A DNA stretch of 63,616 nucleotides, filler included. It is 8 parts of 8 records of this genome, joined end to end, with 100 filler letters (N's around TTAATTAATTAA, not from the genome) between each part and the next. Parts side by side here need not be neighbours in the genome. Positions count along the whole stretch, not along the records: positions 1 to 20,747 come from SRR7504441_1670; 7 more parts are not named here. One strand, written 5' to 3'. The notes beneath the pieces are model-generated. The model searched no databases. It was given only the letters and a program-made list of their open reading frames with translations, and was not told where the DNA came from. The translations under genes were made by a program, and so were the position numbers. Shown here in pieces: positions 1-41,253 of the stretch; the first letter of the stretch is position 1, and every line of letters starts with the position of its first letter.

Positions 1-3000
1 GGGGGGGGTGATACACCTGCAGTTGCGCTAGGCGCGCTAAAGACTCGAGTGGGCCACTCTGAGTACGCAGCGGGACTGGCCGGACTGGCACAGGCAGTGT
101 TAGGGCTGCAGCTGGCCTGGACAGCGCCGAATTTGCACCTGTGCCGGGTCAATTCGTACCTTGAACTGGAGGATCCTTACATCACTCTGCCGAGCCAGAA
201 TGGTAGCAGCTTGGCTAGCACGGGCGGAATCAGCTCTTTTGGGTTCACAGGAACGAACAGTCATGCAGTGCTGGCACGACCAAGCACGTCAGAAAGCTTC
301 TTTGCTCCAACGGCCAAAAAAGCTCCATTAGTAGTGTATGAGCACGTAGCATTCCCCTGGTGGAGTACTAGCCACTTTGCCATCGCCAGAGCACCCGGGC
401 CTGCCACATCGGAGCTTTCAGAGAGCTTGGACACACCCATATCATTCGGGTGCCTCAACGACTCCCGTGATGCCTCAACTTGGCAAAAGGCCTGGCATGC
501 GGCAAGCTGTTTATACACAGCCCACCATCGTGTTGGATCGGCCTCCGTTGTACCTGGAACTGGATTCATTTGCTTGGTGCAGCAGGCAGTGTTGGCAAGC
601 AGTGGACAGGACTTGCTGGTACAGCTCCACGAGGCGGCCTTCATTGCCATGTTTGTCCTGGTCGGTTTTCAGCCACTTGTGAGGCTATCAATGCTGCCCT
701 CAGACGCAACAGGAAAAGCAATGGTTACGATTGAATCTAGCATGGACGGACCTGGGTGGGTAAAGCATGTCGAAATATCTGCCACCGCTTCAAGAGAACA
801 AAGATCATTCAACTTGCCTCTGGCAGCACAGCATACTATCTTTCTCAGTTGTGCAACATCCAGCAGCACTCAATACCAAACCTTTGTACCAGTGAGTCTG
901 TCACAACATGCGTTTGCAAAGCTGTCCATGCAAACATCACTGGCAGCATCCACACATCTCCTGCCATGCGACAAGCTAGAGCCTAGCGGCATGGTTGGTT
1001 GGATTTGTCATGTGCATGGTAGTACAGCTCGAGGTTCATACTTGCATTGTGGGCAGCCAGAAAGATTACAATCCGAACGCAAACTGTACCATATAGAGTG
1101 GGCGGAGGAGGAAATTGTGACCTCGCGACTGAAGCGTGCAATGACCCTAGAATGGGGTCCTGGGAACGATACCCCGATTCAATCAATCGAAAAAAGCAGC
1201 ATCAGCGTCATGACCTTGGAGGAGTGTCTGTGCGAACAGGTTCATTGTTCTATTTTGCTGTGCGCGTGCTTGGGCTCTCAAAATACGATACCTGAGGCTC
1301 TTCAGGCAATGAGAGCTGCTGCAAACCATCATTCAGCTATATGGATTGCATCATCATGTGGTTTAGACAGAAGTGCCCTTTGGGGTTTGGTAACTTCGGT
1401 GAACGCTGAGCACCCGCAGTCGGCCCGATGCGTGTACGTCGATTCTGAGTGCAAAATGAGTAGTTACTTAGCAGCTGGACACTGTCCTAGGGAATCGCAG
1501 CTGGCGCTCAAAAAGGAGGGCATTACTCTTGTTGCCAGGCTAACAACGAAGCGTTACCGAGTGCAAGACCCAATCCAGTTGATCGTGCGTGGGCGTGGAG
1601 CTTTGTCCTCTGCCACAACGCAATTGCAGCGCAGAGTACATCTCTTCGCAGGATCCAGCACAGTTCAAGTTAGAGCAGTTGGTCTTAACTTCAGAGATGT
1701 CCTCAATGTATTGGGCATGTACCCAGGAGATCCTGGACCACCTGGGGCTGACTTTGGTGGAGTCGTGTCAGTTCATGGTGGTGCAGAACAGAATGTGCTT
1801 GGCTGGGCATTGGGGAGCCTGCAGTCATATGCTGTGACAGATCCTCGATTGCTAAGTGTGGTGCCGGAGCGCTGGTCGTATAAGGAAGCATGTGCAGTTC
1901 CATCAACATGGGTGACTGCATGGATGTGTCTGGAGGAGCAATTGGGTATGCGGTCGAGTACTGCATTGCTAGTGCAAGCGGCAACGGGTGGATTAGGTCT
2001 AATGGCAGTGCAGTTTGCCTCGTGCGCTAGTGCCAAGCTGTGCGGAACAGCAGGACACGCCAAGAAGAAAGCATTCCTACACTGCTCCTGCAGACTGCAT
2101 CTAGTCAGCACAACAAGGGACGTCGGAGTGTTTGAGGCTGATTCGCGCTACATCCTTGGTACCAGGAGTGCAGGGTGGGCAGCTGTGATCAACAGCCTCT
2201 CACATGACAATTACATTGCAATTGCTCTTGGGCTGGTCACCGAGGGTGGACTATTTGTGGAGATCGGTAAGCGTGGAATCTGGAATCGGAACCAGGTGGC
2301 AACATCAGGAGTGTGCTACAGCGTGGTGGCAATGGATGTTCGTGGGAGCCTGGACCGAGACTGGCAACACGCTGTGCTACGAGGCCTGAGCTTTCGAGGC
2401 GGTAAATCACTGCCCTTGCATATCTTTGACCTCCACCGCGATGGAGTAGAAGGATTCAGGCTACTGCAACGGGCAGGTAGCCAAGCGTCAGTGTTTGCCT
2501 TTCCCTGCTTCTATAGAGTATCATTTAGCGCATAACGTTAGTGCTAAGGGTTTAATATAATTGCGTCTCTCAGTTGTTTGTCCAGGCCAAATCGGGAAGG
2601 TCGTGGTGAATACGAACCAAAGACACCGGTTGTGGACTGCAAGTGTCGACTCTTCGAGCGCCCACACTGCATGCTATCTTGTGACGGGAGGCACTGGAGC
2701 ATTGGGTTTGTCATTTGGACAGTGGCTGATGGATAGCTGCAACAACATCCAACTATTATCACGCAGCGGAATAGTCGTCGAAGGACTAAAGCAGCTATGG
2801 GAACAGTGTGTAACAGGCGTCTCTGGCAATCTGCAGGTTGGGCTATGCAACGTTTCGCAGTCCCACGAGCTACAGCTATCAGTTGAGCGCCAGTTGTCTG
2901 GATTAATGCACTCTGCCGGGGCTCTTGCAGATGGTCTCCTGCAGGATCAGACTCAAAGTGGGTTGCGACGAGTTTGGGCACCAAAGGCACGTGCTGCATG

Positions 3001-3690
3001 GAATCTGCATGAAGCAGTCACTCATGAAAATTCAGAGTTTCAGACTTTCATACTTTTCTCGTCGATCGCTGTGCTACTTGCAGGGCCAGGTCAGGCTAAT
3101 TATGTGTCAGCCAATGCTTCCTTGGATGCCTTGGCAAGGCTCAGAAGTGGGCAAGGATTAGCTGCAATCAGTGTACAGTGGGGATCGTGGTCTGGAGCTG
3201 GGATGGCGGTTCAGACTGGTGTGGTGCAGTATCTCAGAAAGCAAGGGATGGAATCCCTTAAAGCCGAGCAAGGAGTTCGAGCTCTTGAGCTAGCTGTAAG
3301 TGCAGAGCATACAGTAGTCGCAGCTTCACTCATCAAATGGCCAGATTTTCTTGAAAGTCACCCATCGGCAGTACTCACAGGATTTCTGGATATGTTTGTG
3401 ACTCAGAAAACCGTATCTTGGCAGCACCATGCATCGTCTGTTGCAAAGTTTGGCATGCAGGACATCGATGGTAGATCCGTGGAGGCAATGGTGTCATCCA
3501 AGGTATGGGAGGCCGCAGGAGTGAAGATTGCGGTGGATGCACCACTGGCAGAGAATGGTGTCGACTCACTGTCGGCTGCGGAGCTGCGGAACTTGCTGCA
3601 GCTTGAACTTGGGGAGGCAGTGAAACTGCCCAGCTCTGTTGTCTTTGAGTATCCCACAGTGTCGATGCTTGGGCACTTTTTGCTGACACA
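1..3690 (+). other. Fully reducing PKS module: KS C-terminus, DH, pseudo-KR, ER, KR, ACP
   Basis: KS GALKTRVGHSEYAAG and SSFGFTGTNSHAVL; DH HRVGSASVVP (HxxxGxxxxP); ER VRAVGLNFRDVL and AATGGLGLMAVQ; KR TGGTGALG, HSAGALADG and GQANYVSAN; ACP GVDSL...VFEYPT. Confidence 0.92.
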
Positions 3691-6600
3691 GCTGTGTGCA
3701 CATCGAAGTTGGTCACATGATGTGCAATCGGCTTCTCTGCCCGAGAGCATGATCCTTCCTGACACAAAAACATTTGAGACTGTTGGTGTAGCGTGCCTGC
3801 TCCCTGGAAAGACATCCACATCATTCGACTTGTGGGAAACCTTGATGCTGGGATGCGTACACATCACTAGCAACCCACCGCTCAGGTGGCAGGAAGCCTG
3901 TTCTTTGGCTGGAGCCCCAGAAGCCGTGTACACTGGGGCGTTTGTCGAAATGAACAGACATACAGACTTGCTCAACGAGGCTGATGATCACCTCAAGCTT
4001 ATGGTTGGAGTGAGTCGCGATGCAATATTAGATACCAGAAGCCTCGTGCAACCGTATACGTGTGGGCTTTTTACTGCGGCTGCAGCACAGTCTTTTGTGA
4101 TCCCACTATCACAATTCCACATTTCTCGCGTCGTTGCGCAGAGTTTGAAGATCGGAGGACCTCATCACAATGCAGATGCTGCGTGCTCATCAGGTTATCT
4201 TGCGTTTGTGTATGCACTTGAGGCCCTAGGATCAGGAAGCTGTGGAGCTGCTGTGGTGACTTATGCTAATTTGCCTCTGTATTGACGATAGGTCTGTGCA
4301 GGTGTGCGGCGTATCACTACTCCGAGACCCGGCTATGCCCATATCGCTTTTGGACATGGGTATTCTGTCACCATCTGGCTCCATGTGTCCGTGGGATGCT
4401 AGCGCTGATGGAATGGTGTGGGGCGAGGGCTGCTGCTCCGCAGTAGTGCAGCACGCTACCTCCAAACAGGAGTACGTGACCATCACCGGATGGGGAGTGA
4501 CACAGACCAGTTCACAGCTTCCGCTCGGGTTCTCGGATCCTGCTGCAATGGAGTCTTCAATCTTACGTGCCATGTCATGCGCTATACTCCAGCCTCAGAC
4601 AGTTGAGCTGATACATATGCACGCAATGGGAAGCCCGGCATCGGATATCCCTGAGCTGATGGCTGTTACAAATGGATTGTGTGGAGTCGAAAGAATAGCG
4701 CTAGCAATCGTGAATCATAAGGCTAACTTCGGGCACGCTGTGACTGCTGCTGGGCTAATGGCAGTTCTCACCACAATCGTGGCAGTTCAGCAACGACAGG
4801 CTCCTCCGCTTTACAGCATCACATGTCCCATCAAAGAGGTCACGGCAGCGTGCCTTTCATTACCCTTGGATTGTAAGCTCAACCTCCGGGCGCAAGGTAT
4901 CGTCCACGCTGGCATACATGGGACAAGCGTGAGTGGTGATAACATCTTCATGCTTGCTTGCCAATGCCAGGAAAGTCGCGGATTACAATTGAATCAGTTC
5001 GTCAATGCTGCTTCTTTTTCATCATTGGTTAATCCGGCGTTACAAGATCAGCACCGAGAAAATTGCGATTCTAGCTCTCTTTCGCCGCTCATTGGTTTGT
5101 GCTGCAGAAACTTGTCTGAACTCGCATCGCAAATCGCCGACCGGACGGTTTTTGCCGATGATCAGCTGCTTGGGGATGCACTGAATTCGGTGCAACTTGT
5201 GCGTTTTACCCAGCGGGCACAGAAAGAGTTTGGAATGGAAATTCTGCCAGCTGTGGTGATCGAGCACAAAACTATTCGAGCTGCTCTTGCATTCATGGCC
5301 TCTATGGATGAAGCTGTTCAGGAAGGCGATAGCCAATCCAGCTCCAACGGACAGATGGCAATGGGCCATCCACAAGACAATATTAAAGAGCGCTGTCTTG
5401 AAGCTCTGGGCTCAGATCCTCCACAACCGCCCCTGCGCTTAGACCCCGTTGAAGAAGCTACCAAATCTCGAGAGCAGTTTCAAAATGCACCAACACCCAT
5501 GCTTCAATTCAGTATTTTGTTCTTTGGTTCAGACTTGGACGACACGGCTGAAGCTTACCAACTTGTGTTTGACATGTCACTGCTGGCAGACAGGAATGGG
5601 TTTCAAGCTGTGTGGTTTCCAGAAAGGCACTTTGAAGTGTTTGGAGGATCATTTCCGAATCCAAACCCTCTTGCTGCGTCTGTTGCAAAGCTCACTAGCA
5701 AGATTCGCCTGAGAGCTGGTAGCGTCAACATCCCACAGCATTTTTCGCCGCTAAGGGTGGCTGAGGACTGGGCAATGGTTGATAACTTGTCAGGTGGGCG
5801 TGTCGATATCAGTTTTGGTGCAGGTTGGAATGCAGTCGACTTTGCACTGCAGCCCCAGAATTTCTTCGTAAATAAGTTGGTGCTTTGGGAATCGATTCGA
5901 GCTGTCCGCCATCTATGGCAAGGTGGAAAGCTACAGGTCCGCGACGGCCTTCGTAAGGAGATCAGCATTGGAACACGCCCTCGTCCGATCCAGCCTGCTC
6001 TCGAGGCGTGGGTCAGTGCATCGGTCAACCCACAGACCTTTTGGGATGCTGGTGCTGTTGGATGCAACATATTGTGCAGCGTATTTGGTCAGACATGGTC
6101 AGATCTCGGCCAGAAAACCGAGTTCCACAGGCTTTCTCTCACACATCATGGGTTTGACCCAACGCAGCGGACTGCTACATGCCTTGTGCATACCTTCATG
6201 CTTGAATCCGACCAAGCCGCGCAGGCTGTGGCCAGAAAGCCTCTGGTGGATTATCTACTCAAGGGAATACATCTAATCAGATTGCAAGACCCAGCTATTG
6301 CTGAACTGCCAGATACAGAGCTCGCATCAGTCGCTGCATCCCGCTTTCTGCAAACAGCAAGCTTGATTGGTAGCCTGGAGAGCTGCAAAGCGATGGCATC
6401 GAGGATACGCTCAGTAGCAGGAATTGACGAAATTGCGTGCTTGGTCGACTTTGTGACAAACCGAAGGAAGGTGATTGACAGTTTTGGGTATATTACTCGG
6501 CTTTCTACATCTTTTAGCCAGAGATTGCCTCACCAACGAAAGATTCCTGCGATACGTGCTGATGCACTCACAACACCGTTTCCTCTGGCACATCGGAGCG

Positions 6601-9600
6601 CTAGAAGACATGCATGCTTCCTCAAGAGAGTCGAGTGTGTGCCTGGGACTGAATGTTTCGTTGTGACAATTCATTTTGATACCATGCCAAGCTTTATCCC
6701 TGGTCAACACGTCGTTTTGCTTCACGTCGACTCAGAAGACACGGTCTATGTGTTCGCATCACTCAGCGACGTGAATCTTTCCAATCAAACCATCGAGCTG
6801 GTGCTAAGAGCTGGGTTCTGGCCACCAATTCTCTCGCGTTTGCCTCACATGTCAGCAGGAACCCCGCTACAAGTTGATGGCGCTCATGGCACCATGATTC
6901 TGCCATCCCTAAAGGACTTGGATGGATTCAGGCGCATAACACTCATCGGGGCAGGTACTGGCATAGCTGGCTTGCGATGTATCCTCAAAAGTCTTCTCCT
7001 CAGCAAACCTTCACTCAAAGTCAATCTTGTTTATTCATGGAACTGTGCAAAATACCCTTCAATACTTTACCACGATGAGTTTCTGCTCATGGCACAACGA
7101 GGTCAGATCTCGTATACGCTCTGTGCAACTGGCGATAACAAAATTGTCAGTAGCCCGAACGTAAGGATCTTCCACCACCGTATGGACGCGGAGGTTTTGA
7201 GAAACGAAGTGTGCCGAGAGACGCTCGTTTTTGTGAGCGGGATGCCACTAATGGTCGGTCATGTGCTGATTCAGTTGAAACTCCTGGGAGTGCCGTCGTA
7301 CCACGTCAAGACAGAGTCGTATGGAGTTGAGTCTGCGAGAGCTTACCTTGAGGAAAAGCCTATTTCCTTCGTAGCTCACAGTACCACGTCTGGCGCCGAA
7401 CATCTCAGCATTCAGTGTGAAGTAGAAAGCCAGCCGTTCAGTACTGTCCCCCTGTCGTTTCCGGTATCCTTGCCAGACGAGGCTGCTGGGGTCGGTATTG
7501 TAGGTCTAGCCTGCCGCTTGGCAGCAGACGCGAATGCAGCTCCGAGCTTATGGAATGCACTCGGGTCGAATCTGTGTACGGTGACACGCTCTCCCCCTGC
7601 CAGATGGGTGGAGGCTTGCAAACAAGAAGGCATCTCTTCCTTGCCAGGTGCATTCATCGATGCATCAGAGCAGATTGACTGGCTCAAAGGCCCAGCAGTC
7701 GATGCCGAGCAGTTAGATTCTCACCTTCAAGTTCTGCTGAGCGTCATGGATGAAGCTCTGGTAGCTTCTGGCAAGCCTCGCGCCATGTGCCAGTACCAAT
7801 GTATTGGTGTTTTTACTGCGGTCGAATCTTGCCGACTCGTGGTTCCTACCCCAACCTGGCTGATTTCTGGCCTGGTTGGCCAGCTGTTGCAGCTGAATGG
7901 ACCACACAGAAATTCAGATGCGACATGTGCTTCTGGGTATCTGTCTGTTTGCTTGGCAGTGGAAAGCATCCGGTTTGGTCATTGTCAGTGTGCTGTTGCT
8001 GGTGGATCGGCTCTCAGTCTTCGAGCAGGGCCAATGTATTCGATGTTGGTCCAAGGAATATTTTCTAGAAGTGGCCGCATCGCGCCGTTAGACACGAGTG
8101 CAGATGGCACTGTTATCGCAGAAGGTTCGGTGGCCATCACACTGACCTCGAATACGTCCGACAGCCATGCATCTATCACTGGCTTCGGCACTTGTCGTAC
8201 CCTCTGCGCAGCGGTTACAGGAGTCACCAGCCCGATAGAGATGCAACGCGCTTGTGCGTCTTCTCTTGCAGCTGCCCGATATAAAGCAGGGGATATAAAC
8301 TTGGTCCATCTACATGCAACAGGTAATCCTCATGCGGATATTCCAGAAGTCACAGCCATGGCAGAGGTTCTGACCAATAGCGCCTGTTCAACCAACGATG
8401 CACTCATTCTTTTGGGTCACAAGGGAGTATTTGGGCACACTGAACCGAATAGTGGCATTCTAGGGATTGTTGCGACCGCTCTTAGTCTCAGTCACCGCCT
8501 TGTACCGAGTCACGTTCGTATAAGGAAGACTGTGACAGAGGTAGCCGCTCGTAAAGAATTGGACCTTCCTGTTACATATCCTCGAAAGCTGGAGGCCGTC
8601 AGACCACTGCGAGCTTCAGTCAATGCTAATTCAGGTAGTGGGGACAGTGTGCACATAGTGATGGAGGCGTGCGCGCGCAGTTGTGCCCAACATTCTCTGT
8701 CATGGGCTCACACAGCTCTGAAGGTGCCAGACCTCGTCTTCATTCCACATCATGTTGGCATTGCTATTCACAATATCGACAACACGTTGAGTTCTCTCAT
8801 TGGCCTAGGATTTCGACGAGTGAGTAGATTTATATCTGAAGCTGAGCACGTAGAGGTGCACAAACCCATCTTTTTGTGCTCTGTAATCTTACTGACCGGT
8901 TGCTCTGGTTTTAGGTTTGCTTCGTTGACATCGGCGGGCCGGTCTTGCTCGAGCTTGTTCAGGGCTTGGACAAGTACTCGCCGGTTCAAAAGCTGTTAGA
9001 AGACACTGGGCCCGCTCCATATCATATTTGCTATCAGGTTCAGGATCTGCAAAGGGCACTGGCTCATCTTGAGGGCTGTGGTCACACGGTCACAACCAGG
9101 CAGTCTGAATTTCATGCATTTGTACTCTCTCCAGATAAGCAACTAGTCGAATTAGTGAGCTTTGACATCTCAAAGTATTGGATTGGCTCTGATGGTAAGA
9201 TCAACTTACTAACAAGCCATGCAGCTGCTCCCATGCCTTGTGCCATGAAAGCTGAGTTGAACTTTGTTGGGTTTTGTGTCCGCTGCACTAAAACCGCGGT
9301 TGCTCTGTGCAAACAAAGCTTTGGATTCGACGTACTGGAATCCTCAGGCAATTCTTCACATTCTGTCATCCTGAATGCTGGCGGAGGGCTGGCAATCAAA
9401 GTTTTCGAGCCTAATAACGAGCTTGAATCAAGGGACCGCCGGTTTGAGAGACCTGGGGCATACCACTTATGCTTCTCCCGTGTACACGCTGATGACTGCG
9501 CGAAAGAGTTGACCCTTTTGAGTACCGCATATCAACACAGCGAGATTCGCCAAATGTCGGACGGACAATTGTTGTGCTGGTCACCTGATTCTCAGATTCG

Positions 9601-12600
9601 CCACCAGGCCCAGCTCTTGAAGAAATCACGTGGGGTTTCCAGCATGGCCAATCGCAACAGCGAGGAGTCACGCTCCCCTGTCATGCCATCTAATCACACG
9701 CCTGACCTCCTGCTGAGCATTATATCACGGCATGTGAATGATATAGCTCAGAAGTGCGTGGATGTTTCCTCGCCCCTCATGAAATCTGGACTAAGCTCGC
9801 GCGGGGCTCTTGTCCTCCAAAAAGCTATCACGGAAAGATTCCAGGGCATCCAGGTATCTCCAGTACTGATCTTTGACTACCCGACTGTCACAGAAATTGC
9901 CGCCCATATTCACGCCTTGCTTGAACCGATGGACATCAGGTGACTTGATGCATCGCCTATGATCGTGTGGAATTGACCTTGGTGTATGATGCAGGTGTGA
10001 CCATGACCAGCTAGCATCAGAATTACCGATGGGCGCAAAATCGGTCCAGAGTGTCGTTGCAGCAGAGTGCTCTGCTCCCGGTGGCTGTCGTACCTCTAAT
10101 AGTCTGTGGAGCTCACTCAACTCGGCGCATAATAGCGCTGAGCAAATTCCTCAGTGTCGCTTCGATTTGGGGGCATATGACGAGCTCAGTGTCAATGTAG
10201 GTCACTTTCTGAAAGATGTGGAATTGTTTGATCATATCTACTTTGACATGGGATCGCTGGAAGTAGAAGCTACAGATCCTCACCATCGGATATTCTTGGA
10301 GCTTGCTGCAGAGCTTTGCGCGGCCGGTCATGTGAAGCGTTCGCTTTCAGGTCTGGCCATGGGGGTTTTTGCAGGACTCTGTTACAATGATTGGATGAAA
10401 GTGGAACGTGGCAGCGAGACCTCGATCTTCTCAGCGCATGGTGGCGACATGAGCTCTGCCTCAAGTCGAGTTTCGTACTTGTTTGGGCTCAAAGGGCCAT
10501 CTATGACTATCAATACCGGCTGTTCGTCAGGACTTACAGCACTGGACACTGCACGTCACAACGTGAAGGCACTAGCATGTAGGTCGTCCTTGGTTCTTGC
10601 AGTAAACTTGCACCTTTCTGTTGATGGGTGGATTGCTCTCGGTGTCATTGGTGTGCTTGCTCCTGACGGCCAATCCAAGACATTTGATATCAAAGCAGAT
10701 GGGATGGGCTACTCAGAGGCGAGTGGGGGTGTGCTGATACAACCTGACTCATTCCACGCCCCTTGCTGTGTGGCTGGCTCAGCTGTGAATCAAGATGGCC
10801 GAAGTGCAAACTTCATGGCACCCAATGGATTGGCTCAACAAGCTGTCATTCAAGCTGCTCTGGAGGCCAGAAGCGTTGAGCATCATGTCGAAGTGCATGG
10901 CACAGGCACACAACTCGGTGATTCGGTCGAAATGGCATCGTTGTGTAGCGGACTGCTTCGTAACAGTAAAAGGCACATAGGGTTAGTGGTTGCCGGGGCT
11001 GTAAAATCCAACCTTGGGCACACAGAGGCGGCGTCTTCACTGGTAGGGCTCGTTAAGACCATTACCACCCTGCAGCGCGAATACGTGGCACCGAATCTAC
11101 ATCTGACACAAACCAATCCTAATTTGGACCAGCAGCTAGTTGAGAGTGTATCACCATCTGAATCAGCCCGGGTTGCCTTTGGTATGAACTGCATTGAGCG
11201 CGTTGGGGGCATCAGTGCCTTCAGCTTCAGTGGCACAAACACTCATGCCGTTGTTGTGTCTGGAGACAGGTTGGTCCAGTCAGAATTGGCAAAGCGCCGT
11301 CCCATGGTGCAGTTTTGCCACCAAGTCTTTTCATGGTGGTCTGCACCATTTACACAAGGGTCTCCATCCAAGACTGGTGTCTACAGGTTGGAAACTGTGG
11401 TGCTTGAACAAGTTGCAAGAATAGTAGGTACACGTGTCGGGCTAGATGAACCGCTTGCCGAAGCGGGATTTGTGTCTTTGCTGGCGGTCGAGTTACAACG
11501 ACAATTATCGTCTACTTTAGGCGTGCCACTTCCAGCAACAATTTTCTTTGATCATCCATCAATCTCAGAGCTTACTTTATACATCACGGAGGTCATAGGA
11601 TCCAACAAAGGACTTGATGCTCCAATTTCCAGCCAGACATCATTGCCCCAGATGGGAATTGTCTTTTCAGAGCAGAGCATCAGCGCACACGACTGGTCTT
11701 TACCTGCTGTGCTCTCTTATGAGCAAGAACAGTTTCTTACGCAGCAAGAAATGGCCCCAAGCTGCACTGCTTTCAATCTACTCTTTTGCTCAAAGGCCTA
11801 TCGTCATCTAGGCCTACATCAAGTAGAGGAAGCTGTGCGAAGCATCATCAGGCGTCATGGTATCCTGCGAACGTCCTATTCTTTCGAAGCAGGTGAGGCC
11901 AGACAGAGGATTGTTGATTGGGAGCCAGCCATTACAACCGTGCAGTCGCTCAAAGATGTTTTTCTTCATGCAAGCCGGCCGTTCGATCTTTTGTCGGGCC
12001 AGCCTCCAATTCGAGTTGTTCTTGTAAACGCTCGCGATGCACACTTTTTAGTGCTCATATCGCATCACATTGCTATCGATGGGATCTCTATTGCCATTCT
12101 GCAGGACGAGCTGAACCTTTCATTATCCACACTTTCCTGTGGAAAGGGGCTGGAGCAGATCGAAGATTTGCCGCCTTTACACTCGATGGCATTATACGCC
12201 ACGCAGCAGCGATCTCTGCGAGGCGACTATTGCGATTCTTCCTTGTCCTACTGGCGTGACAAATTTAAGGACAAACCTAGAAGTTTAGACTTCGGATGCA
12301 CACGCCCTAAGACCTTCACACATCTTGGAGCTAGTGTTCCAGTGGTTATTCCTGCGGGTTCCTGGACTGCAATCACAGCTGCTGGAGCCAAGGTAGCTGC
12401 ATCTCCCGCGGCCTGCTTGTTTGCATTATGGGCTGCTTTGTTGAACTGTTACACCAAACAGGACCAAATTGGGCTGCTTGTGCCGGTTGACCAGCGTGGA
12501 TTTCGTCGTTGCTTTACTGGAGTAGTTGGAAATATGGCAAACATGGTAGCCCTGTGGGTTGACGTTGGTTCTGTCGGATCAGTGATATCCTTGATGCGTC

Positions 12601-15600
12601 ACGCAGAGTGTGTATTGCTAGAGGCGCTCCAGCATGCCGACGTCCCTTGGCCGCTGGTAGTTGAATCGGTCTACGAGGCGCATGGCATCTTGCGAGATCC
12701 GAGCTCTGCTCCGTTGTGTCAGACCGTGGCACAGCTCTTGTCCTTCGAGCAACCTGCTTCGGAGTGTGAAGACGACATCTCATCGATTTACAACTCGATG
12801 TACTCTCACATTGGGGTGGAAACCGATCTACAGCTGCTGTTTCACGAAGATCCAGGGACAAAAGAGATAAACGCGCAGCTCGTATACTACGCTGGGCTGT
12901 TCACTCACAATTCTGCTATGCGAATGGCGTCACATATAGAATCCGTAGTGAGATTGCTGGCAAAAGATCCTGATCTGCAGATTGAAGACTTGCAGAAGAA
13001 AATCACAGGAAGTGTAAAAGGCGATGTTGTTGCATTAGAGTCACCAGGCTCCATATTCGCTCTTACGGGTTTACAGCTAGGATATGTGTATGGCAGAAAA
13101 GGCACAGTGGGTTCTCATTGTTACATGGAAATCGATGTCGACAGAATTGATGTCTCTCGTGTAGAGCTTGCCCTCAACAAGCTCATTTCTCGGCACGAGA
13201 TGCTCAGGGCTGTCGTCCGCACTGATGGGATGCAAGAGATAGTACCAGATGCTGAAGTTCCGTGGTACTCTATTTGTGTGAAACATGATTTCAAGAGTTC
13301 AACACAACGTGATGTGTACTTGAAGTGTTGTCGGCTCAATGCACACAAATCGCCGTATCCATATGACATTGAAACGTTTCCCGGTTGGTCTGTCCGGGCA
13401 ACAGAGATCGACAATGACTGCTTGCGGTTTCACATCGATACTGATCTCGTCACTACCGGAAATAGCCTCGAGCTGCTAGCCCTCGAATTAGCTCTGCTAT
13501 ACAATGATCCAGAGGCATTGCTTCCACCAATCAACAAAACATTCCGCGAGTGTTGTTCCGGCCACTACAAGCCTGAAGAGGTTCGTGCTTCTCAGACGTT
13601 TTGGGCGGATCGTCTGCACCAGATTCCTGGCCCCCCAGCGTTTCCTGCTTGCTGGGGAGCAGGATTCAACGCGGAGACTCCTGCGATGCAACGTTTCGAC
13701 GACGTACTGACAGAGAAGGAATGGACATCTCTCCAGCAGAAAGCGGGAAATTATGATGTATCGTCCACTGATTTAATCATAGGGCTTTTCTGCGAGGTCT
13801 TGCGAGTGCATGTGGAGGATCCAAACTTTACACTCACGGTTGTCACAAATCGCCGAGATGAGGAATCTGCAAATGTTGTGGGTGAGTTTCACGAAATTCT
13901 GTTGCTTGACGTCCATTCTGGATTTGAAGATACCCTCGAAGAGCGAATCTCTCTCCTGGCGGGACGTATGTCAACAAATAGTAAGAACAATAGAATCGGG
14001 GGCACAGAAGTGCTCCGACAACTGCGTCAGTGCCACAACAACTTCACACTGAACTTCCCCGTAGTCGTAACGCCAATGCTTGCGCAAGATATCAAGCAAG
14101 ATATCACGTTCCCAACGATCGAGGGTAGACCACGCGTGGTGTTTTCGAGCTCTGCAACAACCGGTGTTACTCTCGATTTCCAGTTTTTAGATCGTGATGG
14201 CACTCTAATATATGGTTGGGATATGGATTCAAGAGTCTTTGGCGAGAATGCAGGTCGGGTGATGTTCAATAGCTTTTCTCATTTGCTTCATCGGGTCAGC
14301 CTCGATGCTGGACTTGCAGCGTGCGATACTAGTGACTTGTATTGTCGCCACGCTGCCGTGTTAGACAGATGGAACGCCACAGCCGCACCTCAGTGCTTAG
14401 ATGTGTGTTCTCAGTTTGAAATCGCGGCAACTGCCTGCCCTCAGAGTATCGCTGTCCTGTTTGAGGGTCAATCACTGAGCTATGCAAATGCCGAACGGTG
14501 CACATCAGTCTTTGCAGCTGCGATCCGTCACTATTGCAGATCAAGTCAGTCCTGTATTGTTGGGATATGCGCAAAAAAGAGCATCGAAGAAGTAGCTGGG
14601 ATAATGGGTTGTATGCGAGCTGGATTTGCCTATGTCCCACTCGATCCTAAGTTGCCTAGCAAGCGAATGGACCATCTGCTGGTGTGCACGGAGTGTGTGG
14701 CTGTTGTGATACAGCAGCAGCTCTGGAACGAGCTTCGGCCCCACCTAGAAAAGCATGACATTTTGTGTCTGAATGCAGAAGCTGAATTGCTTGGTAGGCA
14801 CCAAGTGAGTTCCTGCGTACTGGCCTCAAGAACCGGAGCGTTGGCGTATGTGTTGTTCACCTCGGGTTCAACAGGGGTACCAAAAGGTGTGATGGTCGAG
14901 CATACCTCGTTGATGGCATTAGTATCCTCAGCACAGCAACATCTATCGTTGTCCACCATCGACAATGTTCTTTACAGCATAGCGTTCACGTTCGACCCAT
15001 CCATTGGGCTACTGTGCTTCACGCTATCGTCACAAGCTTGTCTCGTTGTCGCGAGGGACGGGGCTTTGACCAATCCTATGTACCTTCAGGAACGAATGAT
15101 GACTGCGCAGATCACATTCACACATGCTGTGCCCGCTCCAACTTCACTCTACCTGGACATCGTACAGGAGCCAGCTTTCCCACCCTCTCTGCTTTTCTTG
15201 TATATGAGTGGTGAGATCTTGACCCCTGAGCTAGCACTGAAAATACTGGAACACCACTCTGGATTGACACTCTGGAATCGCTACGGACCGGTCGAGTCGA
15301 CTGTCGATTCACACATGCATTTCTGTCATTTCGATCGAGCAAACGCGCCAGCCGTTGTGCCAATTGGATGTCTGTTGCCGCATTCAACTTGTTGTGTAGT
15401 TCATCCTCAATTTCATAGCATTCCAATGCCACTCTTTGCGCCTGGCGAGCTATACCTTGGGGGTCCAAAATTATCTTGTGGTTACATCGGCCAGCAAGAC
15501 CTCACATGTGCTACCTTCAAGTCTGAGACAAAGGAGCGGGTGTATCGTACTGGAGATCGCGCTATGTGGCTCGACTCGGGCAGTATACAGTACCTCGGGC

Positions 15601-18600
15601 GTGTCGACTTCCAGGTCAAGCTCAATGGTCAGCGAATTGAGCTTGGTGAAATAGAAGCCGTGGCTCAGCAGACAGAAGGAGTTTCTGACACCAGAGTCCT
15701 GTTGCATCAGAGCAAAACGAGCGTGGCCCAATTGGTCATCTATGTGGTGCCGGTGGGAGTACAGCCAAGCGAGGTATTGGAGACATGCTGCAGTGCACTT
15801 CCGACTTACATGGTACCGTCCCTCGTAGTCCCACTTGCACAGTGGCCACTCAATTCGTCAGGCAAGGTTGACAGAAAGGCCCTTCTTTGTCAGCTTGATG
15901 ATTTGCAGCTTCGAAGACACGCATGTCCTAATCTGCCCCAACATCTGAATCCCGGAGCCAGTCACCAGGAAGTGGTCACTCCAGAGTTTCTCCAGAGTCA
16001 TGAAGAGCATTTAATCTTAGTACTGCAGATTATTCAATCGCTGATCGGGCGATCCATCGACACGGACAAGGAGCTAATGACACAAGGTTTCAACTCTCTA
16101 GCAGGAATCCGTTTACGTCACATGCTCCAGACCAAACTCAAAATGGATCTGCCTCAGACAGTTGTCTTTGACCATCCGACAGCAAGAAGCTTAGCAGAGG
16201 CTGCACGGCCCAATGTAAAATGCCAAGATCAGACAAATCTGATGCCAAAGTCAGAGTCGCATAGCCCTCACAGCCACTTTCATCCAAACGGGATCGAACT
16301 GCTTCCTAGCAATCCAGTCACATGGACTGTTGCGCAGGTTGTCGAATGGTTAGAGTGCGAATTGCCCTTCGGCGAAGTGTACCGCGACCACTTTGCCGAG
16401 CTTCGGATCAATGGAGATGCGCTTTTAAACGATTTATGCGAGTCTGACCTTGAAGAGATGGGGATGGCAAGGGTGCAGCGGACGCAGTTCTTGCGGAAGT
16501 TGAAAGGCAGGCAAGAACATGAGCCAGCTGTTTTTACACCTGTCGTAGAGGACCAGGATACAGGTATGTCAGTGGACAAGCTTTTTGCGGGGCCAATTGG
16601 TGACCAGCTGGATCCTGTAGCAGTAGTGGCCGTTTCCTGTCACCTTCCCGGTAATATCCACTCGCCAGACGATCTTTGGCATGTGCTTAGTACAGGTGAA
16701 ACGCTCTTAACCGGAGCAGTTCCCACCGCACTGGCCAAAGTCGTACCACAAGGGTACTCTGGCGCATACTTAGAGAATGCTACGGAAAGGAATGGGACAG
16801 TTCCCCAAAGCATGCTGCGTACTGCAAGAACAGTAATGTCGGAAGCTGGCCTAGATGCGTTGGCGCAAAAGGGCAGTATAGCTATCTTTTATGCAAGCCA
16901 TCACATAGGCCAGGACCATATCAGAAACGCTCCTGCTATACTTCTGGGAGATGCGCTCAACTTGTCAGGCGGATCAAGAAGCCATTTCAATTGTGGGACA
17001 ACTGCCTCACATTTAGCATTGCATACTGCAAGCAAAGGCCTTTTAGATGGTGCGTGTACATCTGCTCTTGTAGCTGGATCCTCGATGTTTGAAACCTTGT
17101 GGTGGCAGCCGGTGGCAGATCTCGTGTCCCCGACTGGCCGTGTTCGTGCATATGATATCAAAGCCGATGGAATTGTTTTTGCTGAAGGGTGTGTCGCTGC
17201 GCTGCTGCAACGCAAAAGCACCGCAAAGAGTCGACCGCTGGCTCTCATTCTCGGTTCTGCTGTATCAGTAAATAATCCTGAGCTTCCACCTAACTTTCCT
17301 GATCAGGAAGCAGAGGAGCTTGCAATGAGTCAGGCTATTTGGGCAAGTAAGATCGTTGCTACAGATTTGGCTTTTGTAGAGTTGGTTGGGAATGGCAATC
17401 CCGTAGGAGAGTATACTGAATTGAAAGCGGCTACAGAACAGCTTTTGGGGACACGCAGCGTCAAGCGCCCACTGCTGATTGGTTGTTTCAATGGAAACTT
17501 GGGTCATGCTTCGTTCTCGGTTGGGTTGATTGCACTTTTGAAGGTAACTCTACAGTTTCAACACAAGTCTGTTGCCCCGGTGATCCATCACTCAGATCCG
17601 ATTGAGATCATTCAACAATGTAGCGGGAAATTACTTGTGCCAACATCCTTGCAGGGCATTTGGTCAGACCATGGGCAAATGTACGGATCCATTCACGGAC
17701 ACTCTGTCGGCGGTGCCCCTAATGTTCATTTGGTGGTGAGCGCTGAGGTTAGTAGTCCGGGACTCGATTACAGCGAGGTTGAACAGTGTGTAGAGGCTAT
17801 CGCGTGGGTGAACAAAGCTGTGGTGGTGCTCAAGGATGGGAGGGCAGTTGGTTACGCGCAAAGTTCGCAGTCAGACTCTGACAAAAAGTCATTTCGCTTG
17901 GAGCAGCATGGACTTAGAGACTACGGGAACGCCACACAGATCAAGCTTTGTAGAAGTGGACATGATGGTGTCCATCACTACAGACGCAAGTCGTATCGCA
18001 AATTCATTGGCGGGCTTGAATGGTCAGAAGTTGAGAAGTTAACCGAGTTTCTGTCAGAGTGTCGGTTTCCTGAGAAGTTGCAAGGTACGAGCCCTGGATG
18101 TATAACTATTGATGAGCTATCGAAATTCTTTCAATGCATCTCAGCACTGATTTCTCCATCTGAGGTTCTCCCAAAGTATCGATATCCATCGGCTGGTTCG
18201 AGCTACGGGGTTCAAGTGTACATGAGTAACTCAGGCTGCAGAGGTCTCTCCCGTGGAATCTATTACTACGATCCGATGGATCATAGCCTTGTGCTCGTAA
18301 GTAGCAAGCCACTGTCCGCCCAAAGTGCGCTGTTCCTTGTCGGGAAGGATAGTGCGATCCGGCCGCTATATGGAGATTGGGCATTGCGGTTTCAGCAGCT
18401 TGAAGCTGGCTATATGCTTGAGTTGCTTCAGCAAAGTTATATGCATATCTGTGGATCCTTGATGGCACATTTAGATCTTGACTGCGATCTTGCATTGTTA
18501 GCAACGGAGGCTGGTATGATGAGTTCCGCCGACCATCTCTTGGGCGCGTTCTCCTTTGACTTTGAATCTGTACCTCCCCCTTTGAGAGAAGACCTTGCTC

Positions 18601-20747
18601 TGGAAGTCGACATATTTGTCCGCGCCGAACCGTGGGGTCTGTTTGACCACGAGAAAAACTCAGTCAAGGTAGGCGATGTGCCATCAGAAGGCGCTCCTAT
18701 CGTCTTGTATTTGGCGCACAGCAGTTCCGACGCACGACTGGCCAACTTGCAGCTAGGACAGTTGGGGCAACGGATCTTTACTCGCAAGAATTCGCTTGGT
18801 TTGGGCTGGTGTCCTTGGGGAAAGATCATGGACCTTGAAGTGGCACCGAATGCGCTGGTGCATGGTCTAATTGGCGGCAAGGTCAGTTTGGAACAGACAG
18901 ACAGTCTATTTGCACCAGAGGATACACTGGAAGCAAAGATAATGACTGAGCTCAAGGATAAATTACCGAATCACGACCTTCCAATAATGTGGACCGTGGA
19001 ATCTTATCCACTTCCCTTGGATGCCAACAGCATGATTGATAGAAGATTGCTAGCATCGGAAGACTATATCTGGGATCTACCAAGAAGTGGGCCACCAGTA
19101 ACCAAGCAATACTCAGCAGATCATAGTGAAATCTGTTCAGCAATTATGGCCCAGGTGTCCAGTCTGATCACGAATCCAACTTCTAGAATAACACCCAGGA
19201 CAAAGCTCCTTGCTGGTGGGATGACTTCGATCCAGGCAGTGCAGTTGAGTAGTGCTCTGTCACGCAGCTCTGGACTTAAACTGCCACCCACCCTTGTCTT
19301 CAATTATCCATGTGTAGAGGATATTGCTGTGTTCGTTGGGCAGAAGTCTGGCCTGATTGACTCCAGTTCACCTCCGCCAGAGGTGAAGTCAGATTCTCTT
19401 CCGGGCGATCCACAGGGCATCGCTGTGATGGCTGCGGTGTACACGTTTTCTGGCCGAGATCATGATTTGTCCCACATACTGCTGGGAGGCATCGATCGCT
19501 GTCAACAAGTTCCAGCGACAAGGTTCGCTGTTCCCGACGAAGTCTATGCCAAGCATGGGTATTTTATCGAGAGCCCAGAAATGTTCGACAACGACCTTTT
19601 TGAAATCAGCCTCGGAGAAGCTACAGCGCTCGACCCACATCAACGACTAGGTTTGGCGTCAAGCTACAGTGCACTTCTCAAAACAGGCAGCTTTTCGAGA
19701 TTATCTCTCGTGGGCTCGTCTGTTGGTGTGTTTGTTGGGACGATGACTGGTACAGAATGGACCGGATGTGCCTCTGATTCTGTTTACAGTGCTACTTCAT
19801 CTGGAGCAGCTTTCCTGGCCGGCAGAATCTCATATGTCCTCGGTTTGCAAGGACCGTCATTTGTGGTCGAAACTCTGTGCTCTTCGTCACTAGTGGCTCT
19901 GGACGCCGGGAGACATAATTTGAACACGAATCGATGCTCGCATGCGCTGGTGACTAGTACCAACCTCCTCTTATCAGGACAAGTCTTCCACATTCTCTGC
20001 AAGATTCGCGCCATGTCTCCAGATAGCAAGTGTAAGACCTTTGACAAGTCAGCAGATGGGATGGCCCGTGGTGAAGCATCTGTGTCTATTGCTCTCTGTC
20101 CATATCATACAAAACAAACACGCATTGCTGGCACTGGTATAAATCAGGATGGAGCAAGCGCATCAATGACTGCACCGAACGGCATTGCACAGGGAACACT
20201 GATACGCTCATTGCATGTCCAGTGTCAAACTCTGGGTGTCACTGGTAGCTCCGAGACTCATGGGACAGGAACCCCACTCGGTGATCCCATTGAGGTTGGT
20301 GCTTTAAGTACTGTATTTAAGTTCAGCTGTGATGCGACGCCGATGGCGTTTGGCGCCCTCAAGTCACACATGGGGCACACAGAGGGAGCTGCTGGAATCA
20401 TGGGGATACTGAAGGTGCTGCTTAATATGAAGAAGGCACAGGCAATTCCGAACCTGCACTTCCGCGAGGCGAACCCTAAATTGCAATTGGAAGATCTTGC
20501 CCTGATGTTGCCATCAGGCTTGCTCGCAGTCAACTTTATCCCAACTTTGGTGTCAGGTATTAGTGCATTTGGGATGTCGGGCACTAATGCCCATGCTGTA
20601 ATGTCTTGTTCAAGGATGCGAAACGTCACCGATGCGATGGAGTCCACGCAATTTCCTACGATCCGCTACAAACTCATAGCTTTCTGTTGGTGGAACCCTT
20701 CGGCATCCGTCGTTGCCGCGTCTCCAGTACGGCGATTCATTCCTCAA
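1..20747 (+). CDS. Giant trans-AT hybrid PKS-NRPS megasynthase, 5'- and 3'-partial; exons 1-2476, 2586-4255, 4302-8855, 8915-9939, 9995-20747 (about 6,826 aa)
   Basis: ORFs 49-2535, 2561-4285, 4263-8999, 8945-9943 and 10029-20795 join in phase across GT-AG introns. The joins restore motifs: LLQRAG|QIGKVVV (ER end), GSCGAAV|VCGVSLL (KS) and EHVE|VCFVDIG (VOC). Many KS/KR/ER/ACP/C/A motifs are present and no AT (GHSxG) domain was recognised. Confidence 0.93.
2477..2585 (+). other. Spliceosomal intron 1 of megasynthase (109 nt, phase 1)
   Basis: GCAG|GTAGCC...TGTCCAG|GCCAA; removal gives RAGQIGKVVV, the ER terminal motif. Confidence 0.88.
3775..5300 (+). other. Divergent shortened KS followed by ACP-like domain
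   Basis: DAACSSGY (catalytic Cys), HMHAMGS in place of HGTGT, HKANFGH; ACP-like GDALNSVQL...VIEHKTI. Confidence 0.8.
4256..4301 (+). other. Spliceosomal intron 2 of megasynthase (46 nt, phase 0)
   Basis: GTG|GTGACT...GTGCAG|GTGTGC with branch-like CTAAT/TTGAC; removes the stop at 4283. Confidence 0.85.
5499..6510 (+). other. Luciferase-like monooxygenase (LLM) domain, MupA/Atu3671 natural-product type
   Basis: FSILFF, ADRNGFQAVWFPERHFEVFGGSFPNP, IRLRAGSV, RVAEDWAMVDNLSGGRVDISFGAGW, GIDEIACLVDF. Confidence 0.92.
6610..7325 (+). other. Ferredoxin-NADP-reductase-family (FAD/NAD-binding) oxidoreductase domain
   Basis: FIPGQHV, LQVDGAHG, LIGAGTGIAG, VNLVYS, VFVSGMPLMV, LGVPSYHVKTESY. Confidence 0.85.
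7488..8670 (+). other. Second divergent shortened KS domain
   Basis: GIVGLACRL, DATCASGY, HLHATGN, HKGVFGHTE. Confidence 0.82.
8740..9920 (+). other. Tandem VOC/glyoxalase (methylmalonyl-CoA epimerase-like) domains plus ACP
   Basis: First VOC: HHVGIAI, LLELVQ, PYHICYQV, LVELV. Second, degenerate copy: NFVGFCV...PGAYHLCF. ACP: PLMKSGLSS...IFDYPT. Confidence 0.82.
8856..8914 (+). other. Spliceosomal intron 3 of megasynthase (59 nt, phase 0)
   Basis: GAG|GTGCAC...ACTGAC...TTTTAG|GTTTGC; joins the two halves of the first VOC domain. Confidence 0.87.
9940..9994 (+). other. Spliceosomal intron 4 of megasynthase (55 nt, phase 2)
   Basis: CAG|GTGACT...TTGAC...ATGCAG|GTGT; runs without a stop into the frame of ORF 10029. 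Confidence 0.82.
10050..11600 (+). other. Canonical KS plus ACP (non-reducing module)
   Basis: NTGCSSG, EVHGTGT, KSNLGHTE; ACP AGFVSLL...FFDHPS. Confidence 0.9.
11705..16205 (+). other. NRPS module C-Cy-A-T
   Basis: C: HHIAIDG. Cy: LTGLQLGYVYGR, RHEMLR, FPVVVT, VTLDFQ...LIYGWD. A: FTSGSTGVPKG, YGPVE, YRTGD, NSSGKVDRKAL. T: GFNSL. Confidence 0.9.
16310..16510 (+). other. Sterile alpha motif (SAM) domain inside the megasynthase
   Basis: WTVAQVVEWL...YRDHFAELRINGDALL..LCESDLEEMGM..VQRTQFLRKL matches the SAM consensus (W..V..WL...Y...F....I.G..LL.L...DL..MG....R..L). Confidence 0.85.
16610..19340 (+). other. Non-elongating KS0, then an A-subdomain remnant with inserted SagB/EpoB-type oxidase (Ox), then T/ACP
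   Basis: KS with NCGTTAS (Cys position is Thr) and VGNGN (His lost); A8-like LDYSEVEQ..VNKAVVV; Ox RRKSYRKF, PKYRYPSAGSSYGVQVY, GIYYYDP, LEAGYM; A10-like LPLDANSMIDRRLL; carrier GMTSI...VFNYP. Confidence 0.82.
19415..20610 (+). other. Canonical KS of the next (truncated) module
   Basis: ETLCSSSL, ETHGTGTPLGDPIE, KSHMGHTE, SAFGMSGTNAH. Confidence 0.92.
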
Positions 20748-20847
20748 NNNNNNNNNNNNNNNNNNNNNNNNNNNNNNNNNNNNNNNNNNNNTTAATTAAT
20801 TAANNNNNNNNNNNNNNNNNNNNNNNNNNNNNNNNNNNNNNNNNNNN
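20748..20847. other. Artificial contig spacer
   Basis: 44 N + TTAATTAATTAA (stops in all six frames) + 44 N. Confidence 0.98.
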
Positions 20848-30838: not shown

Positions 30839-30938
30839 NNNNNNNNNNNNNNNNNNNNNNNNNNNNNNNNNNNNNNNNNNNNTTAATTAATTAANNNNNN
30901 NNNNNNNNNNNNNNNNNNNNNNNNNNNNNNNNNNNNNN
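30839..30938. other. Artificial contig spacer
   Basis: N44-TTAATTAATTAA-N44. Confidence 0.98.
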
Positions 30939-36404: not shown

Positions 36405-36504
36405 NNNNNNNNNNNNNNNNNNNNNNNNNNNNNNNNNNNNNNNNNNNNTTAATTAATTAANNNNNNNNNNNNNNNNNNNNNNNNNNNNNNNNNNNNNNNN
36501 NNNN
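36405..36504. other. Artificial contig spacer
   Basis: N44-TTAATTAATTAA-N44. Confidence 0.98.
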
Positions 36505-41153: not shown

Positions 41154-41253
41154 NNNNNNNNNNNNNNNNNNNNNNNNNNNNNNNNNNNNNNNNNNNNTTA
41201 ATTAATTAANNNNNNNNNNNNNNNNNNNNNNNNNNNNNNNNNNNNNNNNNNNN
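41154..41253. other. Artificial contig spacer
   Basis: N44-TTAATTAATTAA-N44. Confidence 0.98.

Follow-up and report, generated by a model that had tools for sequence, protein, structure and literature searches.

A putative in-line vicinal oxygen chelate didomain between ketosynthase and acyl carrier protein in a hybrid PKS/NRPS gene

The module and its splicing

We analysed a stretch of DNA of 63,616 nucleotides (the window), the first contig of which (1-20747, from SRR7504441_1670) carries one hybrid polyketide synthase/nonribosomal peptide synthetase (PKS/NRPS) gene of long open frames with introns on the + strand. The contig is incomplete at both ends, and within it a pair of vicinal oxygen chelate (VOC) domains, here called VOC1 and VOC2, stands between a ketosynthase (KS) and an acyl carrier protein (ACP). 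Structure predictions quoted in the list and below are from AlphaFold2 (AF2), with the predicted local distance difference test (pLDDT) as confidence measure. The features of the module and of the KS that follows it are given below.

7491-8669, + strand: KS of the VOC module (Pfam ketoacyl-synt, E 8.5e-30)
8733-8855, + strand: N-terminal part of VOC1 (beta1-alpha1-beta2) with ligand 1 (Glyoxalase_4 profile positions 1-36)
8856-8914, + strand: intron of 59 nt, phase 0 (GTGCAC...TTTTAG, with a CTGAC branch-like motif at ~8892)
8915-9160, + strand: C-terminal part of VOC1 with ligands 2-4 (Glyoxalase_4 profile positions 39-99)
9161-9253, + strand: linker between the VOC copies (two short strands predicted by AF2, 88-90 and 96-98, pLDDT ~46-76)
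9254-9598, + strand: VOC2, degenerate (hhalign against the stand-alone family; Pfam E 0.046)
9701-9939, + strand: ACP of the VOC module (Pfam PP-binding, E 4.2e-7, exon 4 residues 277-332; GLSSRG at 9788-9805)
9940-9994, + strand: intron of 55 nt, phase 2 (GTGACT...TGCAG; the frames 8915-9943 and 9990-20795 join solely in this phase)
9995-11106, + strand: downstream KS, predicted recipient of the product of the VOC module (Pfam KS N- and C-terminal matches in exon 5)

The KS of the module keeps its catalytic Cys, His and His motifs (DATCAS at 7917, HATGNP at 8313 and FGHTEPNSG at 8430), and because the Cys and both His motifs are retained the VOC module probably elongates the chain. As the tail of this KS (VHIVMEA) terminates at 8669, VOC1 begins at 8733 and the ACP comes next, the VOC pair occupies the slot between KS and ACP. 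This is the order, KS-VOC-VOC-ACP in the position of a ketoreductase (KR) or dehydratase (DH), that an initial annotation made from the sequence had proposed. Using Pfam, no KR, DH or enoylreductase (ER) was found in the VOC module, nor in the preceding module, which bears a luciferase-like monooxygenase (LLM). The unit belongs to one polypeptide, with the KS and the N-terminal part of VOC1 sharing the frame 4260-8999 and the C-terminal part of VOC1, VOC2 and the ACP sharing the frame 8915-9943. That a PKS here carries a genuine in-line VOC unit we regard as very probable.

The same annotation had taken VOC1 to be interrupted by the intron at 8856-8914, and on the basis of homology only this reading holds. 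On a profile of the stand-alone VOC family, splicing out 8856-8914 gives a gapless domain of 120.3 bits, whereas the unspliced frame, at 21 bits, is closed by a stop at 8997-8999. Without splicing this stop would separate the synthase from its ACP and from the following 11 kb, which are in-frame PKS/NRPS. The profile coordinates of both exon pieces abut (11-48 for the exon 3 tail, 48-137 for exon 4). Also P0003, a protein of 728 aa from ENA that has VOC-VOC-ACP-KS in a single open reading frame (ORF), is continuous over the junction (EHVE then VCFVD), its residues corresponding one-to-one with both window exons. It may be noted that an alternative donor, GTGAGT at 8820, is in frame and more canonical; it was rejected as it yields 95.5 bits with a 13-column gap, so that the donor at 8856 gains 25 bits over it, and the continuity of P0003 also opposes it. 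The predicted removal of the intron is thus supported by three independent lines, namely profile continuity, the comparison of gene models and P0003.

Two unequal VOC copies and their relatives

The Pfam family Glyoxalase_4 (PF13669) matches window positions 8915-9640 at E 4e-12 and 46.8 bits, and the 52 residues ahead of the intron (8700-8855) match the start of the same profile at E 0.0087. Its gathering cutoff of 27 is passed by exon 4 alone (45.1-46.8 bits) and by P0003 (68.9 bits, E 5.4e-19). When the window was scanned in six frames, as 909 pieces of at least 40 aa against a profile of 46 stand-alone relatives, only two pieces matched, namely exon 4 (E 2.8e-29) and the tail of exon 3 (E 2.1e-4). 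Four candidate metal ligands had been named in order for the first VOC, and they were found at their sites on nearly invariant family columns: the motifs are HHVGI (8748-8762), LLELV (8945-8959), PYHIC (9017-9031) and LVELV (9143-9157), and the ligand codons are H at 8751-8753, E at 8951-8953, H at 9023-9025 and E at 9149-9151, where the second His of HHVGI is the one that we take to be the ligand by analogy with solved VOC enzymes. Across 49 aligned sequences, conservation reaches 90 % or more at the columns of E83, H107 and E149 (numbered as in P0003) and 70 % or more at the HH column, and a Cys two residues past the second ligand His is likewise nearly invariant. The H/E/H/E set is present in window VOC1 and P0003 alike, and with it the feature of the metal branch of the superfamily, that is His, Glu/Gln, His and Glu on beta1, beta4, beta5 and beta8. 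VOC1 therefore reads as a complete single-chain putative metal site with a His-Glu-His-Glu tetrad, and we think it rather likely to be catalytic.

The whole-domain fold of VOC1 was modelled on P0003, and the window model covers exon 4 alone. For P0003 residues 1-290, using the 49-sequence alignment, AF2 gave pLDDT 90-97 over 30-151 and two beta-alpha-beta-beta-beta modules, with the strands (E) and helices (H) E31-39 H43-54 E57-64 E69-75 E81-87 in the first and E104-112 H115-124 E128-133 E137-141 E147-151 in the second; residues 1-80 of window exon 4 have pLDDT 83-97. A Foldseek search of the P0003 model against the PDB returned 2QH0 (template modelling score, TM, 0.85) and 3HDP (TM 0.84) at a root-mean-square deviation (rmsd) of 1.7 Å, and structures of methylmalonyl-CoA epimerase (MMCE) at TM 0.77 (6QH4), 0.76 (6WF6), 0.73 (1JC5) and 0.70 (6BU2). 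The exon 4 model had 26 matches at E <= 0.001, and among the matches listed all belong to the VOC superfamily, with TM 0.2-0.4 and rmsd 11-17 Å that make them unusable for domain packing. In the ESM Atlas the best score was 0.77 and the clusters were of the Glyoxalase family throughout, which we use as a lead only. The VOC fold assumed for this region is in this way recovered on the ortholog P0003.

The description of VOC1 as MMCE-like stands for the Pfam family and the fold and fails at the level of the enzyme. On the MMCE equivalog model TIGR03081, with a cutoff of 114.95, P0003 scores 47.3 bits (E 2.9e-12) and window exon 4, a partial domain, 30.7 bits; the closest stand-alone relatives themselves reach 38-78 bits only. 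Neither P0003 nor window exon 4 matched the glyoxalase I models of NCBIfam (TIGR00068 and NF050074) at E <= 0.01, and the stand-alone relatives score 26-35 bits on glyoxalase I models against a cutoff of 120. Among solved structures the closest by sequence, at E 2.4e-10, is glyoxalase I of Clostridium acetobutylicum; human MCEE ranks lower, at E 5.7e-6. VOC1 accordingly sits in the branch of MMCE and clostridial glyoxalase I, where one chain holds the whole metal site, and is assignable to neither enzyme.

The second copy had been called degenerate, and this is what we found. VOC2 alone reaches E 0.046 and 14.5 bits in Pfam, under the Glyoxalase_4 cutoff, and a two-sequence VOC2 profile (window and P0003) aligns by hhalign with the stand-alone family at a probability of 96.6 %, E 4.8e-10, over 89 columns. 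At the ligand positions window VOC2 has F, K, H and C (H, E, H and E in VOC1); it retains one of the three positions aligned by hhalign, the fourth having been assigned by eye from the pairwise alignment, and VOC2 of P0003 keeps none of the four ligand residues. Only the first module of VOC2 is folded with confidence by AF2 (P0003 183-229 at pLDDT 72-86, window exon 4 116-164 at pLDDT 73-83). The second module is mostly below pLDDT 50 (in the window after about residue 180), and its helix is deleted in P0003. By its sequence VOC2 is a true but decayed duplicate whose ligands are lost. Since the free enzymes of the VOC1 branch are dimers, a VOC1-VOC2 pseudo-dimer is a reasonable reading by analogy.

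P0003 follows the window collinearly from the tail of exon 3 through exon 4 into the first KS of exon 5. The downstream KS shares 55 % identity over 305 aa with the KS of P0003 (other KS-bearing parts of the gene, 23-27 %), VOC1 has 76 of 123 residues identical (62 %), the ACP 30 of 71, the two modules of VOC2 22 of 51 and 10 of 35, and the linker between the VOC copies 8 of 28 aligned residues. The predicted catalytic copy is therefore the best-conserved part, above the KS, the ACP and VOC2, as would be expected if VOC1 is functional and constraint on VOC2 has relaxed. Word-indexed searches of proteins of 425-2000 aa gave P0003 as the only match, and those of proteins of 28-508 aa gave 12 matches: nine stand-alone VOCs, two GNAT-VOC fusions and P0064. 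The two fusions (P0063 and P0068) are bacterial GNAT acetyltransferase-VOC proteins of the same VOC subfamily (PF13420/PF13302 with PF13669) and may hint at acyl-CoA-linked chemistry for it. P0064 (83 aa) is 90 % identical to P0003 residues 1-70, and the likeness ends four residues short of where the window has its intron, possibly a sign that a close relative has an intron slightly displaced.

A HMMER scan of 1.84 billion representative proteins at E <= 0.001 gave 58 matches, all except 5 of 80-204 aa, with no PKS-embedded VOC among them and none of the nine examined by Pfam carrying a KS. Of the five longer ones, P0018 (3437 aa) and P0019 (661 aa) were rejected as multi-domain relatives, being taken as spurious for having GEVED/SdrD and CHU_C domains without a VOC; P0020 is a VOC-radical SAM/SPASM fusion, and P0047 and P0050 are tandem-VOC proteins. 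Among bacteria 147 relatives were found with a 10-sequence alignment, of which 80 loci were kept, mostly from Acidobacteriota and Bacteroidales. At 28 loci where ORF length was read, 26 have frames of 135-255 aa and 2 have long ORFs of ~545-580 aa. We ran Pfam on 40 of 82 neighbour ORFs at nine of the 10 extracted loci and found no PKS among them; at three of the nine loci a radical SAM/SPASM gene lies beside the VOC and at one it is fused to it. This pairing in Acidobacteriota (L002 5797-7530, L005 6285-7490, L006 6288-7487 and L007 6168-7496, with P0020 fused) is conserved and uncharacterised, and at some of these loci genes for a lipid A acyltransferase, an AMP-ligase, an MsbA-like ABC transporter and Wzy_C lie close by.

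Gene context, possible chemistry and alternative readings

The remaining features of the gene and the joints of the window are as follows.

1-2535, 2561-4285, 4260-8999, 8915-9943 and 9990-20795, + strand: open frames of the gene, with short GT...AG introns between
4256-4301, + strand: intron of 46 nt, donor GTGACT as at 9940
5508-6503, + strand: LLM of the PuwE/MupA type (TIGR04020, 340 bits, cutoff 244.45; Pfam Bac_luciferase, E 1.1e-27)
6648-7337, + strand: FNR/BenC-like flavin reductase fused after the LLM (NF040810, E 9.4e-7; NF005963, E 1.4e-4; Pfam NAD_binding_1, E 0.0019, below cutoff)
20748-20847, 30839-30938, 36405-36504, 41154-41253, 49957-50056, 54752-54851 and 59374-59473: spacers, N runs around TTAATTAATTAA

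The window consists of eight contigs joined by these seven spacers, each of the form N44-TTAATTAATTAA-N44, so everything past 20747 is unlinked to the VOC gene. The PKS contig has ~50 % GC and the other seven 53-66 %, and given the joined contigs and their differing GC, linkage and common origin of the contigs are not given. Neighbouring genes beyond 20747 were therefore dropped as context, since they lie on separate contigs. Also, the idea that the GC step marks a low-GC outlier region of the Mamiellales type lost its basis, as the step spans joined contigs. By Pfam the domain order is [KS]-DH-ER, KR-ACP-KS, KS-ACP-LLM-reductase-KS-VOC, VOC-VOC-ACP and KS-ACP-C-A-...-SAM domain-...-ACP-KS, where the commas and the 'and' separate frames, C and A are condensation and adenylation domains and SAM is a sterile-alpha-motif. 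No acyltransferase (AT) or methyltransferase (MT) domain was found in the 20.7-kb fragment (Pfam, E <= 0.01), and no halogenase was seen among its Pfam domains. The three introns read, 46-59 nt long, start with GTG, end with AG followed by G at the acceptor and have TTGAC or CTGAC 15-25 nt upstream of it; they look like a compact and uniform class. The introns together with the sterile-alpha-motif domain point to a eukaryote. Taken as a whole, our best explanation is that KS-VOC1-VOC2-ACP forms one module of a spliced eukaryotic, AT-less, algal-type hybrid PKS/NRPS in which VOC1 would be a metal-dependent proton-transfer domain and VOC2 its packing partner, and we hold this combined reading tentatively, at slightly less than even confidence.

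Two further segments of the polypeptide may be noted. The sterile-alpha-motif (SAM_2/SAM_1) lies at ~16317-16481 (exon 5 residues 2110-2164; E 1.4e-5, 25.6 bits, cutoff 20.5) and is a protein-interaction domain unusual in assembly lines. After the C-A module a SagB-like dehydrogenase segment that would use flavin mononucleotide (~18108-18314; TIGR03605, 45.9 bits, under the cutoff of 78.4) may be an azoline-oxidising Ox domain.

The LLM passes TIGR04020, the model for MupA/Atu3671 enzymes of secondary metabolism, and its best PDB match by sequence is PuwE (6KET, E 2.3e-81). NF040810 is the BenC electron-transfer component and NF005963 a NAD(P)H-flavin reductase, and the LLM and the reductase together (5508-7337) may form a self-sufficient two-component oxygenase, placed after the ACP rather than before it. 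In the passages of PMC4219810 drawn on here, the PuwE monooxygenase (Ox) is assigned bioinformatically to C-2 hydroxylation and, with an aminotransferase, to making a 3-amino-2-hydroxy acyl chain after an elongation-only PKS module. The initial annotation had suggested that the VOC pair epimerises or cyclises the ACP-bound intermediate, perhaps acting on what the LLM produces; the PuwE/MupA type of the LLM, together with this assignment, lends the suggested link some indirect support. Since no KR, DH, ER or MT was found from the LLM to the VOC module, nothing seen there would remove a hydroxy-keto motif, and on the PuwE analogy the chain would reach the VOC module with a hydroxyl beside a ketone. 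A vicinal oxygen pair is the namesake of the VOC superfamily, and VOC chemistry goes through a metal-stabilised enolate or enediolate with return of the proton to the same carbon in MMCE and to the neighbouring carbon in glyoxalase I.

In the mechanism that we propose, VOC1 would bind a divalent metal that chelates two adjacent oxygens of the ACP-tethered thioester, and a ligand glutamate would take a proton and give it back via an enolate or enediolate. The likeliest substrate feature would be a 2-hydroxy-3-oxo motif supplied by the upstream PuwE-type hydroxylase, and either the hydroxylated carbon would be epimerised or the carbonyl would move in a 1,2 ketol shift, with VOC2 probably acting as the packing partner that free-standing VOC enzymes get from a second subunit. 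This specific substrate and reaction, a 2-hydroxy-3-oxo thioester undergoing epimerisation or ketol shift, we hold as doubtful. A stronger form, in which the hydroxylase and the VOC pair work as a two-step on-line device that oxygenates C-2 of a 3-oxoacyl-ACP and then moves the carbonyl through an enediolate or resets the stereocentre, is quite improbable in our estimate; if true, it would amount to 1,2-carbonyl transposition inside a polyketide assembly line by a domain class never assigned to PKSs.

Several points weigh against the proposed role. The LLM belongs to the previous module, and because of the elongation-competent-looking KS between it and VOC1 the hydroxy-keto motif would be one extension further from the thioester at the VOC ACP. 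As VOC1 is far under the MMCE cutoff and P0003 has no glyoxalase I match at E <= 0.01, no characterised reaction is transferable to it. The inter-domain confidence of AF2 is low (predicted TM, pTM, 0.55 and 0.49). Among proteins of up to 2000 aa P0003 is the one other PKS-embedded copy, thin support for a conserved module type. Also the bacterial context gives no help with the chemistry, the nearest relatives being stand-alone, non-PKS and, at four of the nine loci, linked to radical SAM/SPASM.

The alternative that survives best is a strict epimerase of the MMCE type, which would invert a 2-substituted malonyl extender (methyl-, hydroxy- or similar malonyl-ACP) or a 2-substituted 3-oxoacyl product and leave the LLM uninvolved. 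TIGR03081 is the sole NCBIfam match of P0003 outside KS and PKS families, the four MMCE structures superpose, and a malonyl-type thioester on the ACP of the module is the nearest analogue of methylmalonyl-CoA. However, the scores of 47 and 31 bits stand against a cutoff of 115, and as no MT or AT was found in the fragment, the LLM is the one visible source of a 2-substituent. Epimerisation of 2-methyl groups in modular PKSs is moreover normally ascribed to KR domains, and we find this alternative unlikely.

The pair might instead be non-catalytic, either a structural or dimerisation element or a product-binding self-protection domain resembling bleomycin-resistance proteins. With the VOC2 ligands lost and part of the second module deleted in P0003, at least half of the unit is no enzyme. 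The superfamily also includes pure binders, such as the mitomycin-binding protein 1KLL among the Foldseek matches, and VOC modules pair across chains in many members of the family. But the four ligands of VOC1 are kept in two proteins only 62 % identical in that domain, and VOC1 is conserved above the ACP and KS, which leaves this reading improbable.

We give little credence to a redox enzyme of the dioxygenase kind, in which the tethered chain would be oxidised or cleaved with O2 at an Fe(II) or Mn(II) centre. The lowest Foldseek E-values (1.4e-10) do go to 4-hydroxyphenylpyruvate dioxygenase (HPPD) and hydroxymandelate synthase, which are two-barrel enzymes with one barrel degenerate, and the VOC module adjoins another oxygenase. 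Yet these dioxygenases fit at TM 0.37-0.39 and rmsd 11-13 Å, as against rmsd 1.7-3.1 Å for glyoxalase I and MMCE, and a four-residue H/E/H/E site is the non-redox VOC pattern, dioxygenases having a 2-His-1-carboxylate site.

Slighter still is the chance of a loader of the glyoxalase I type, in which the phosphopantetheine thiol of the ACP would add to a 2-oxoaldehyde and VOC1 would isomerise the hemithioacetal to a 2-hydroxyacyl-S-ACP, a new route for charging a carrier protein if true. The best solved relative is indeed a Ni-bound glyoxalase I (3HDP), and a thiol-bound substrate is what glyoxalase I handles. However, P0003 fails to match the glyoxalase I models, and the intact KS catalytic triad upstream leads one to expect a malonyl extender on the ACP; we know of no precedent for glyoxalase-type ACP loading.

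That the VOC sequences are a gene-model artefact, a separate small gene or pseudogene remnant between PKS exons, seems highly improbable, for although the contig is fragmentary and the donor GTGCAC is less canonical than the one at 8820, no stop interrupts the passage from the KS to VOC1 or from VOC2 to the ACP, an unspliced synthase would end at 8999 and orphan the 11 kb downstream, P0003 has the same order in one ORF, and the other two introns likewise have a GTG donor and an acceptor AG followed by G.

Comparison with known systems and significance

Returning to VOC1 as a candidate metal-dependent proton-transfer domain with VOC2 as its partner, the closest likeness is to C. acetobutylicum glyoxalase I (3HDP, Ni-bound, and 2QH0), which matches at E 2.4e-10 and 3.3e-10, TM 0.84-0.85, rmsd 1.7 Å and ~30 % identity, with the motifs HH..., ...EL..., PYHICY and ...IEL at the same positions. 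That enzyme, however, is free-standing, has ~130 aa and acts on a glutathione hemithioacetal, whereas VOC1 is built in between KS and ACP and has a degenerate copy beside it. MMCE (TIGR03081; 1JC5, 6QH4/3RMU, 6WF6 and 6BU2) shares the Glyoxalase_4 family and the two-module single-chain metal site at TM 0.70-0.77, and its substrate is a thioester enolised at C-alpha; it differs in being a free homodimer on CoA esters, and VOC1 matches it at E 6e-6 (human) and 0.04-0.2 (Streptomyces). In the two-barrel VOC enzymes, HPPD and hydroxymandelate synthase, one of two barrels holds the metal, and the Foldseek alignments with them cover 212-244 columns, poor as the fit is. Their catalytic barrel is C-terminal (here the predicted one is N-terminal), and their chemistry is Fe(II)-dependent oxygenation at a site of three residues. 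By analogy the unit would function as MMCE or glyoxalase I do, with a build resembling that of the two-barrel VOC enzymes, in which one barrel is dead.

The zinc VOC cyclases, known as the CmaC type, act on a carrier-protein-bound thioester. In the part of PMC9396626 drawn on here, Zn-dependent enzymes of the VOC family make cyclopropanes in natural-product pathways, and LrgB is a stand-alone VOC protein of unknown role; by class description these cyclases would resemble VOC1 as VOC-fold metalloenzymes that make a C-alpha carbanion (PMC9396626). They are, in contrast, stand-alone and need a gamma-halogen leaving group, and no halogenase was seen in the 20.7-kb fragment. The in-line Ox (LLM) and aminotransferase of PuwE are alike in being non-canonical enzymes within a megasynthase that act on a carrier-bound chain, as far as the passages of PMC4219810 used here describe them.

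In the literature searched, no PKS module is described as containing a VOC domain, although supplements with domain tables could hold one. The main texts of PMC4661987 (a survey of algal PKSs), the Mamiellales preprint, PMC7073580 and PMC4647583 make no mention of an in-line glyoxalase or VOC, and 'glyoxalase', 'VOC' and 'epimerase' are absent from the main text of the PKZILLA preprint. The unit is a known fold, presumably with a known chemistry, in an undescribed place, real and rare.

Modular PKSs draw on a small and well-catalogued set of in-line domains. A metal-dependent VOC between KS and ACP would add to it a proton-transfer chemistry beyond the reductive loop, namely epimerisation, ketol shift or carbanion capture. 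The pair would also illustrate how a fold that otherwise requires a dimer can enter a megasynthase, namely through duplication in tandem with one of the copies decaying, and the didomain, compact at ~290 aa and with clear ligand residues, is amenable to expression and assay. If the proposed role is true, the prediction of products from sequence for protist megasynthases would change.

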